64,000 bases of DNA from Gammaproteobacteria bacterium (GTDB lineage Bacteria; Pseudomonadota; Gammaproteobacteria; JAJFKO01): assembly GCA_021773175.1 (NCBI GenBank), contig JAJFKO010000064.1, forward strand, positions 201,367 through 265,366, in the 5' to 3' direction. Of the stretch, positions 24,307 through 25,670 are shown piece after piece (the stretch's first letter is position 1; every line of letters starts with the position of its first letter). The notes beneath the pieces were generated by a model. The model was not told where the DNA came from. It did not search any database and saw only the letters and a program-made list of their open reading frames with translations. Position numbers and translations under genes: made by a program.

Positions 24307-24756
24307 TCAATTTAAATAAATTTTTTCTCCTTGAATATTGACATCTTGTTTGGCAATTTGCTTAAGTTGTTGGGAGTAAATATGCAAATCACCCTCGCTA
24401 TTGCAATTTATTAAGCTATTTGTGTTGCCTAAAGTGAAATTACCATTGCGAGACATGGACATAGAGAACTCACCAAATTGTAATTGCATAGTATTCTCTT
24501 TTAACTTCTGCCAATAAGGTTGCATCACTGCTGTGTTTGATAGTTTATTTAATAAAACAAGTCCTTGTTCACTAATCGTAAAAATAACTTCATCATGTAA
24601 ATTAATTTCCGGCATAGATAAGGTTTTTAAACTTGTGACATCACTACCTTCTGCATGCGTGATAATAAAAGTATTGCGTTTTTGTATGGCAGTAATTTTG
24701 CCAAGAAAAACACCGCCAAGGAAAAGTGTTTTATAGTGTTTTTGTTTCTGTAGCAT
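24307..24756 (-). CDS. hypothetical protein (149 aa)
   Basis: Strong AAGGAG RBS 8 nt upstream of its ATG. Separated by 2 nt from the stop of the upstream 303-aa gene, so co-transcribed. The operon is divergent from the tssF-like gene. Confidence 0.55.
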   Translation of the reverse strand: MLQKQKHYKTLFLGGVFLGKITAIQKRNTFIITHAEGSDVTSLKTLSMPEINLHDEVIFTISEQGLVLLNKLSNTAVMQPYWQKLKENTMQLQFGEFSMSMSRNGNFTLGNTNSLINCNSEGDLHIYSQQLKQIAKQDVNIQGEKIYLN

Positions 24757-24758
24757 CG

Positions 24759-25670
24759 CTATACTCCTTCGCTAGTTAATGTTAAATGCTCTCTATTAGA
24801 TGAGAAGTTATAAAGAATAATCTGCTCATTATTTTTCTGCTGTAATGCAGCAATACCTAATGCAAGTTGTAATATTGGTTTGGCGACACCAATATCGCCA
24901 AGACTAGCGGTAATGTTGAGTATGCTAGGGATCTTTTTAGTTGTTTGTAAAAATGGCTGAGTAAAGCAGTGTAAAGCACTAAGGTTTTCATGGTTTTGTT
25001 GTTCTGCAGCCAGGATTAAAGTCTGCTCTTCGATTTTATATTGCTGTGAAATCGTGATCGTTTTTCGAGTGTTTTTGTTTATAACAACACAAGCTGCAGC
25101 CGTACCTAAAGCTATACCTTCAGTGTTTCGTGTCGACATAATACTCTTCTGCTGAATATGTTGCTGAATAGATTGAGGCAGTAGCAAATCATCAAAGCCC
25201 AGCAGAATTAAATGGCTTTGCTTAGAATCTTGAAAGTCCGATAGGGTTGAAAATAATTTGTCTGTATCAAACTGAGAAGAGGGTATAAACTCTAACTTTG
25301 AGCTTGTTGAATCTGATATATTGTCTTTAAGAGCCTGTTCTATTAAATATTCTTGTGAAGTGCTCTCACTCTTAGCAATAACAATAGTTCTATAATTGCT
25401 GTCATTACGCCAACTTATGTTGCCTAAAGTTTTTTTAATTAATTTGTTAAGGCGCGTATCGACTGATAGCTTTAAATAAGCATTTTTAGCAGCAGTAATA
25501 ATGGGCTTATTATTGAGGTCTTGCATGCCATGGTGTGCTTGTAAACAGCTTTTCTTGCTTTTAATACGAGATAATAGCTCTGCTATGTTATTACTAAGTT
25601 GTGTATAACAAGTCATGCTTTCTATGCCAATATGGACATTTGATATTGTTTTCATATATTTTGTTCTCAC
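24759..25670 (-). CDS. hypothetical protein (303 aa)
   Basis: Clean ORF, first gene of a divergent two-gene operon. No family recognised. Confidence 0.5.
   Translation of the reverse strand: MRTKYMKTISNVHIGIESMTCYTQLSNNIAELLSRIKSKKSCLQAHHGMQDLNNKPIITAAKNAYLKLSVDTRLNKLIKKTLGNISWRNDSNYRTIVIAKSESTSQEYLIEQALKDNISDSTSSKLEFIPSSQFDTDKLFSTLSDFQDSKQSHLILLGFDDLLLPQSIQQHIQQKSIMSTRNTEGIALGTAAACVVINKNTRKTITISQQYKIEEQTLILAAEQQNHENLSALHCFTQPFLQTTKKIPSILNITASLGDIGVAKPILQLALGIAALQQKNNEQIILYNFSSNREHLTLTSEGV

Follow-up and report, generated by a model that had tools for sequence, protein, structure and literature searches.

A gene pair divergent from an orphan tssF–tssG locus: a probable, highly diverged TvpD/TvpC-like accessory module of the type VI secretion system

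A 64,000-nucleotide (nt) stretch of a gammaproteobacterial genome (GenBank assembly GCA_021773175.1, contig JAJFKO010000064.1, positions 201,367 to 265,366 of the forward strand), referred to below as the window, carries two small adjacent genes for proteins of 303 and 149 amino acids (aa), transcribed divergently from tssF and tssG, the genes of the baseplate wedge subunits of type VI secretion systems (T6SS). Comparison with distant protein families indicates that this pair is probably a divergent accessory module for T6SS spike assembly, consisting of a TvpD-like and a TvpC-like protein. Both proteins belong to known kinds and do not constitute a new class, while their setting is unusual: they are shortened and extremely divergent, genes for TvpA and PAAR were not found in the window, the TvpC-like gene occupies the slot of the PAAR gene, and the neighbouring locus is an orphan tssFG. 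A previous interpretation of this locus, the sequence-only reading, had suggested that the two products could be novel partners of the orphan wedge module; the relation to T6SS was borne out, while the novelty was not, the proteins probably being divergent members of the described TvpD and DUF6484-type TvpC families.

The organisation of the locus proved to be as previously described. The TAG stop codon of the 303-aa gene (24761–24759) is separated by 2 nt from the ATG of the 149-aa gene, and the AAGGAG ribosome-binding site (RBS) of the latter lies inside the former. The 2-nt stop-start gap suggests that the two genes are translationally coupled, and this gap and the internal AAGGAG support the earlier view of a tightly coupled pair. 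We regard both small genes as real rather than as chance open reading frames (ORFs), because each of them has a homologue in another genome. The longest frame of the first gene opens with GTG, but an ATG at position 25655, used in the public gene call, would yield a protein of 298 aa; since GAGAA is found about 8 nt upstream of this ATG and no RBS could be read in front of the GTG, the ATG is probably the true start. The spacer between the pair and tssF, estimated earlier at about 140 bp, measures 141 bp from the GTG and 156 bp from the ATG, and the identity of tssF and tssG was confirmed by Pfam models and, for tssF, by TIGR03359 as well. A promoter scan of the spacer detected the match CTAACA-17-TATAAT at 25751–25779 on the plus strand and TTGTTA-16-TATTAT at 25725–25698 on the minus strand; the count of promoter sites is no higher than the shuffled expectation. 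A repeat scan of the spacer revealed no notable operator-like repeats, only AT-rich chance matches, and an Rfam scan of the 22–30 kb region of the window gave no match.

Proteins of the NCBIfam family PRK06147, annotated as '3-oxoacyl-ACP synthase' (ACP, acyl carrier protein), are associated with T6SS: 74% of 407 homologues adjoin a DUF2169 gene, mostly as the first gene upstream, and the first gene downstream encodes a spike component, nearly always PAAR, in 52% of cases (PMC7714669). The family has been named TvpD and proposed, from structure prediction only, to act as a PAAR-domain co-chaperone; class II Tvp clusters have the order vgrG – DUF6484 (TvpC) – DUF2169 (TvpA) – PRK06147 (TvpD) – PAAR (bioRxiv 10.64898/2026.02.23.707444). 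Alignments of the PRK06147, DUF6484, DUF2169 and PAAR-like families were built from a Mesorhizobium cluster and ten further plasmid T6SS clusters, and the hidden Markov models (HMMs) derived from them were run over the 281 stop-to-stop ORFs that the window contains.

Judged by its sequence, the 303-aa protein is a pseudo-enzyme of the PRK06147/TvpD-like type, divergent and shortened, with a predicted fold of the ketoacyl-ACP synthase (KAS)/thiolase type and without the catalytic Cys and His. The PRK06147 HMM, constructed from 11 T6SS-cluster proteins, placed it first among the window ORFs with an E-value of 5e-8, against 0.07 for the runner-up, and the NCBIfam PRK06147 model was also its best match, although a local one (E 7.7e-6, residues 147–201). 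In standard searches both proteins appeared as orphans: Pfam, PADLOC and PHROGs gave nothing meaningful for either, a word-indexed homology search returned only the proteins themselves, a profile search of the PDB produced no match, and nothing meaningful was found by tblastn against plasmids. Among 1.84 billion representative proteins, an exhaustive phmmer search revealed a sole homologue of the 303-aa protein, designated P0123 (295 aa, E 8e-6; pairwise BLASTP E 1e-12 over 270 residues), encoded in the metagenome-assembled genome (MAG) GCA_030631035.1, and a profile search of genome contigs with the alignment of both sequences recovered this MAG alone. Compared by hhalign, the alignment of the 303-aa protein and P0123 matched the PRK06147 family with a probability of 96.2% and an E-value of 2.1e-9 (columns 146–293, 148 columns). 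The joint alignment is colinear from the N to the C terminus, extending from an N-terminal strand I-x-I-x-x-x-G-x-x-T to a C-terminal motif L-G-[DE]-[IL]-G-A-A; within it, the 303-aa protein lacks about 35 internal aa, and this protein shares with PRK06147 the motifs G-[VFI]-D-[SD]-L-L, N-x-x-G-[FI]-x-x-G-[ET]-A-A-A and L-G-[DE]-[IL]-G-[AV]-A. No Cys occupies the position of the KAS nucleophile, the 303-aa protein having none between residues 43 and 193, and the C-terminal His of the GHxxGAAG type is replaced (LGDIGVAK); the reference PRK06147 proteins likewise lack the KAS catalytic Cys.

The MAG also provides genomic context for both proteins. P0123 is encoded in the order DUF4389 – DUF2169 (185 aa) – P0123 – 75-aa gene, found on three contigs, and the part DUF2169 – P0123 – 75 aa corresponds to the canonical PRK06147 order reported in PMC7714669. 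PRK06147 is the best match of P0123 as well (E 7.7e-12, 45.1 bits), with a score exceeding that of the 303-aa protein. A tblastn search with P0123 against all PLSDB plasmids (7.3 Gb) led, with an E-value of 3e-3, to a hypothetical protein of a T6SS cluster from Mesorhizobium; its gene comes immediately after DUF2169, and the protein is related to PRK06147 over its full length (E 1.6e-49). The 75-aa protein is similar to the 149-aa protein in the C-terminal half of the latter (BLASTP E 6e-7; shuffle p ~2e-6), and since its gene follows that of P0123, the gene pair of the window is conserved in this second genome. The 75-aa protein was also the top match of the DUF6484 HMM among 286 ORFs in the loci L005–L007 and L011 of the MAG clade (E 1.4e-4), and it weakly matches the model of the Francisella mini-VgrG (E 0.007). 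Finally, this MAG is among the few genomes with an orphan tssFG that belongs to the TssF clade of the window.

The Tvp-like trio of the MAG (L007 1187–2848, corresponding to L008 1103–2764 and to L009) is miniaturised. Its DUF2169 protein has 185 aa compared with about 360 aa in the reference clusters, and its beta-prism protein consists of 75 aa only, the OB-like half being absent. DUF4389 and ABC-transporter genes border the trio, and the contig carries neither vgrG nor PAAR genes.

The gene directly downstream of the pair, on the same strand and with no predicted terminator in between, encodes a thiolase, so one could propose an operon of lipid or polyketide metabolism that comprises a KAS-like protein, the 149-aa protein and the thiolase and is unrelated to tssFG. 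The 303-aa sequence is indeed KAS-like, and a Foldseek search of the PDB with its low-confidence model retrieved mainly folds of type III polyketide synthases and FabH, none of them significant (best E 5e-3, TM-score ~0.3), a trend no more than consistent with a KAS-like fold. We consider the metabolic operon extremely improbable, given the missing nucleophile and the replaced His, a best family that is the T6SS-associated PRK06147 and not FabB, FabF or FabH, the position of the MAG homologue between DUF2169 and the beta-prism protein with no thiolase nearby, and the presence of a GAGGA RBS of the thiolase gene itself and of a plausible promoter in the gap before it.

The 149-aa protein is probably, as judged from profile comparisons, a small DUF6484-type TvpC-like protein resembling the tip of VgrG. 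The complete T6SS clusters closest in TssF, which are of Geoalkalibacter type, encode, between vgrG and a PAAR-like gene, proteins of 144–148 aa that have no Pfam match. Two of these, p144 and p148, align with the 149-aa protein along the entire length (BLASTP E 1e-6 and 2e-4), and in a shuffle test the match to the post-vgrG proteins reached a Smith-Waterman score of 79 against 24.6 ± 3.7 (Gumbel p ~4e-9). Comparison by hhalign of two non-overlapping sets, the 149-aa and 75-aa proteins against p144 and p148, gave 88.9% and E 2.4e-6; p144 and p148 in turn matched ten DUF6484 proteins at 97% (E 7e-11), and p144 matched an annotated Mesorhizobium DUF6484 protein in BLASTP (E 1e-10). The DUF6484 HMM ranked the 149-aa ORF first in the window with an E-value of 1.3e-3, the runner-up being at 1.1. 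A still higher hhalign value, 99.8% between the four-sequence family and the full DUF6484 set, was discarded as circular, because the sets share sequences, and was not used. The protein ends in QGEKIYLN and so shares the C-terminal pattern G-x-x-[IV]-x-[LI]-N common to all 12 reference sequences. DUF6484 profiles map to two segments of VgrG, a stretch adjacent to the OB-fold (columns 430–461) and the extreme C-terminal beta-prism (columns 710–775), and both segments are also matched, more weakly, by the 149-aa family. The protein may thus consist of two halves, the N-terminal one OB-like and the short C-terminal one of the VgrG-tip beta-prism type with the ending GEKIYLN. A metagenome scan with p144 and p148 returned only their own source.

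It had also been noted that neither product resembles gp25/TssE by eye, and this held. No Pfam match to TssE/gp25, Hcp or TssB was obtained at E ≤ 1, tblastn revealed none of these proteins in the window, and hhalign probabilities did not exceed 1.2%; for TssK, which was covered by the Pfam scan only, there was likewise no match at E ≤ 1.

Several observations weigh against the assignment of the pair to a spike-assembly module. The 303-aa protein scores 25.3 bits with the curated PRK06147 model (NF004798), whose cutoff is 342 bits, although a below-cutoff score is not unique to it, since a bona fide plasmid member of the family reaches 169 bits. The AlphaFold2 model of this protein, obtained from the two-sequence alignment, is unusable (mean predicted local distance difference test score, pLDDT, of 41), so its fold is only predicted, from sequence, and the single-sequence model of the 149-aa protein is also unusable (pLDDT 37.9). 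Compared directly with core DUF6484, the 149-aa protein shows weak similarity (hhalign 18.9%, E 1.2e-3; core HMM E 0.07, still the top ORF of the window), and for this reason its family assignment relies on the two-sequence intermediate subfamily of p144 and p148; the Pfam DUF6484 model does not match it at E ≤ 1, nor does it match p144 and p148. In terms of gene content, tblastn with the full set of the nearest complete cluster (L001, Geoalkalibacter type: TssM, TagF, TssA, TssB, TssC, Hcp, TssE, TssF, TssG, ClpV, VgrG, PAAR-like and VasX) gave matches in the 64-kb window to tssF and tssG alone; VgrG was not found by this search, and the PAAR-like and DUF2169 HMMs found nothing there. The gene following the TvpD-like gene is TvpC-like, in a slot that is normally occupied by PAAR. 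In the MAG, the Tvp-like genes and tssFG are located on different contigs, no Tvp-like neighbours were seen within the available sequence of four further orphan or partial tssFG loci, and the pair thus adjoins tssFG in one genome only and co-occurs with it in two.

These data bear on the partnership with the TssFG wedge that had been suggested for the pair: in known systems the TvpD and TvpC families act on the VgrG–PAAR spike rather than on the wedge, and the adjacency to tssFG is not conserved in the other loci examined. The coordinates of all features are collected in Table 1.

Table 1. Features of the window and of the compared loci (positions of the window unless another locus is named)
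Feature	Location	Strand	Remarks
303-aa ORF	24759..25670	minus	GTG start; intact
149-aa ORF	24307..24756	minus	ATG start; intact
AAGGAG RBS of the 149-aa gene	24764..24769	minus	7 nt before the ATG, within the 3' end of the 303-aa gene
AT-rich divergent intergenic region common to the pair and tssF	25671..25811	.	Back-to-back sigma-70-like hexamers, consensus-level matches only
tssF, full-length T6SS baseplate wedge subunit	25812..27545	plus	Pfam PF05947, E 2.6e-122, residues 5-574
tssG, T6SS baseplate wedge subunit	27509..28399	plus	Pfam PF06996, E 4e-34
Acetyl-CoA acetyltransferase (thiolase)	23065..24249	minus	57 nt downstream of the pair
Singleton housekeeping genes	17049-18503, 23065-24249, 29182-30213, 39972-43172, 56491-58266, 58320-58781		Including IDH, thiolase, MetN, CarB and DnaG (DnaG from gene order)
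Orphan tssFG	MAG GCA_030631035.1, L005/L006, tssF 118-1839 / 915-2636		Low-GC gammaproteobacterial
Orphan tssFG	L011 1132-3863		Order QueF / tssFG / ferritin
Orphan tssFG	L025 10001-12606		Low-GC gammaproteobacterial contig
Orphan tssFG	JGI 3300050046 contig		Low-GC gammaproteobacterial
T6SS fragment	L026 2054-12603		tssB-tssC-transposase-hcp-tssE-(927 aa, no Pfam match)-tssF-tssG
TIGR02270 family protein	L014 8575-9738, L016 9059-10306, L023 3627-4901		Mesorhizobium/Caballeronia plasmids

The tssF product scores 433 bits with TIGR03359 (cutoff 260), and that of tssG reaches 125 bits with TIGR03347, under the curated cutoff of 143. With 33–35% identity to its nearest relatives, the window TssF forms a long branch in a clade that includes both complete systems of Geoalkalibacter type and several contigs of low-GC gammaproteobacteria; a scan of genome contigs with this TssF gave no match. 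At least four other genomes of this clade have an intact tssFG with only housekeeping genes around it (QueF, ferritin, IMPDH, UvrA, Era and HSP90), so that an orphan wedge recurs and is conserved and is not a one-off. The 37-nt overlap of tssF and tssG (27509–27545 in the window) is also present in L001 (11698–11734), L003 and L005 (1803–1839), and its retention despite a TssF identity of 33–35% suggests a conserved translational coupling of the wedge subunits. Directly downstream of tssG, the window encodes a 156-aa Cys-rich predicted lipoprotein with an LAGC lipobox (28528–28998, plus strand), which matches no family and is not recognisably TssJ; its homology to a 170-aa secreted protein encoded in the same position in the MAG was considered and rejected, as the two share no similarity. 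The 687-aa and 146-aa genes of L011 were examined as candidates for VgrG and TvpC and were also rejected.

The genes around the pair and tssFG are housekeeping ones, IDH, hemY, hemX, hemD and the thiolase on one side and metNIQ on the other. The GC content of the window is 37%, and that of third codon positions (GC3) is alike, 0.27–0.33, for both small genes, tssF/tssG and the housekeeping neighbours; therefore, the pair and tssFG are taken to be long-term residents of this genome. The lower total GC content that was also observed reflects amino-acid composition, and a low-GC 'island' as a sign of recent transfer was rejected, since GC3 equals that of the neighbours. Six housekeeping proteins are each the sole member of their own cluster at 90% identity among 15 billion proteins, which indicates that the source lineage has no close sequenced relative. 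A 919-aa protein (3084–5843, plus strand) matches the Legionella phosphoinositide-phosphatase effector family SidF with an E-value of 9e-7, and a 406-aa protein (21807–23027, plus strand) shows a weak match to eukaryotic-type tyrosine phosphatases (E 1e-3). Both are likely Dot/Icm-type effectors, and because of them, including the SidF-like protein, the window appears to originate from a Legionella-like genome; taken with the GC content and the singletons, this points to a Legionellales-like lineage.

Outside the window, the contig L026, from a Legionellales-type genome, carries a larger T6SS fragment next to a type IVB secretion cluster. The region 14890–19196 of this contig, immediately adjoining the fragment, contains two copies of dotI/icmL, dotH/icmK and a TrbI/DotG-like gene.

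One could hypothesise that the four genes, the pair and tssFG, are what remains of an ancestral T6SS of Legionellales whose other parts have disappeared, with the pair out of secretion and either drifting or put to an unrelated purpose. Decay of this kind would agree with the absence of T6SS core genes other than tssFG from the 64 kb, with the extreme divergence of both proteins, including the loss of about 35 internal residues from the 303-aa protein, with the shortening of the MAG counterparts (DUF2169 of 185 aa and the beta-prism protein of 75 aa), and with the larger yet still partial set of the related contig L026 (tssB, tssC, hcp, tssE, tssF and tssG), which is interrupted by a transposase. 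Another genome of the Legionellales has, moreover, been reported to carry a partial T6SS (bioRxiv 10.64898/2026.04.11.717937). We nevertheless regard this explanation as unlikely, since all four ORFs are intact at a GC content of 37%, where chance does not preserve long frames, tssF spans the whole Pfam model, and the RBS and the coupled layout have been kept. Besides, tssFG is intact as an orphan in at least five genomes in which TssF differs by 40–65%, which argues for selection.

Alternatively, the genes could belong to a reduced, non-canonical machine, in which the 149-aa protein would serve as a hub, that is, a mini-VgrG comparable to the 164-aa VgrG of Francisella, together with the TssFG wedge and a KAS-like chaperone, in a baseplate-only assembly possibly docking on IcmF/DotU of the Dot/Icm system. 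Such a possibility is suggested by the recurrence of orphan tssFG flanked by housekeeping genes in low-GC gammaproteobacterial contigs, by the apparently Legionella-like source genome with its SidF-like protein, by the dotI, dotH and dotG genes adjoining the T6SS fragment of L026, by the weak match of the 75-aa MAG protein to the Francisella TssI model, and by the adjacency of wedge and tip-mimic genes in the window. However, this proposal is wholly inferential, the 149-aa protein has no gp27-like part, the adjacency of wedge and tip mimic is seen in a single genome, and an ordinary dispersed T6SS could account for the same data, so we consider the reduced machine quite unlikely.

Under the preferred explanation, an accessory module of spike assembly, the 149-aa TvpC-like protein would, by homology, trimerise into a blunt VgrG-like tip, while the 303-aa TvpD-like protein, as predicted for class II Tvp systems, would help to cradle the PAAR/tip end of the spike before its handover to VgrG. 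From the gap of 2 nt and the AAGGAG within the first gene it would appear that both proteins are made together and in coupled amounts, presumably as a complex, and the pair and tssFG could be expressed together from the common divergent control region. The four genes would then represent components of the hub and wedge sides of a Legionellales-type T6SS that have been retained or dispersed, with the remaining parts located elsewhere in the genome.

The results give a probable function-level assignment, derived from sequence comparison, to two proteins that were orphans to standard searches, and they extend the TvpD-like and TvpC-like families, in shortened form, to Legionellales-like genomes, where T6SS is unexpected. 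They also draw attention to a recurring and so far undiscussed pattern, an intact lone tssF–tssG among housekeeping genes in several low-GC gammaproteobacteria, which in the window adjoins homologues of spike chaperones without a spike. Should the remaining T6SS genes be located elsewhere in this genome, the locus would simply belong to a dispersed T6SS whose accessory genes have diverged; should a T6SS be missing from the rest of the genome, components of the baseplate and of the hub side would have been kept for another purpose in bacteria relying on Dot/Icm. As a highly improbable extension of the latter case, Legionellales-type intracellular bacteria might possess a stripped-down T6SS-derived module that combines the TssF/TssG wedge with a mimic of the VgrG tip and a dead-KAS chaperone, has no sheath, tube or full VgrG, and would function as a baseplate-like adaptor, either alone or on IcmF/DotU, the TssM/TssL homologues of the Dot/Icm type IVB system. 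Such an adaptor, if it exists, would explain the conservation of orphan tssFG amid housekeeping genes in several genomes.

Among known systems, the enzymes FabB, FabF and FabH of the thiolase superfamily are distantly related in sequence to the 303-aa protein, PRK09185 and fabF being secondary matches of its relatives, but the 303-aa protein is shorter, lacks the catalytic Cys and His, and is associated in genomes with T6SS rather than with fab genes. The Francisella mini-VgrG (NF041249 T6SS_TssI_Fran, a model of 163 positions) resembles the 149-aa protein in being small and containing little beyond the beta-prism; however, the 149-aa protein does not match this model, and Francisella-type T6SS genes are not present.

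In the class II Tvp clusters, a 'TIGR02270 family protein' of about 390–420 aa recurs next to DUF6484 or PAAR-effector genes (Table 1). It may be a further Tvp accessory component, to judge from this context; no counterpart was detected in the window.

The closest known relatives of the pair are the TvpD and TvpC proteins. PRK06147/TvpD, exemplified by PA0098 of P. aeruginosa, is the best family for both the 303-aa protein and P0123, and P0123 is encoded directly after DUF2169, as are most members of the family. The window protein differs in its length, 303 aa against roughly 340–360 aa, and in its context, since its gene is the first in its operon, and DUF2169 upstream, PAAR/DUF4150 downstream and vgrG were all not found in the window. 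The 149-aa protein differs from the class II TvpC (DUF6484) proteins, which are VgrG-tip mimics such as PA0096 of P. aeruginosa, in an insertion of about 10 residues between its halves and in the position of its gene, which follows the TvpD-like gene and not vgrG. It is similar to them in size (149 aa versus 138–169 aa), in the common C-terminal ending, in the mapping of its C-terminal half to the beta-prism tip of VgrG, and in the co-occurrence of a TvpD-like gene.

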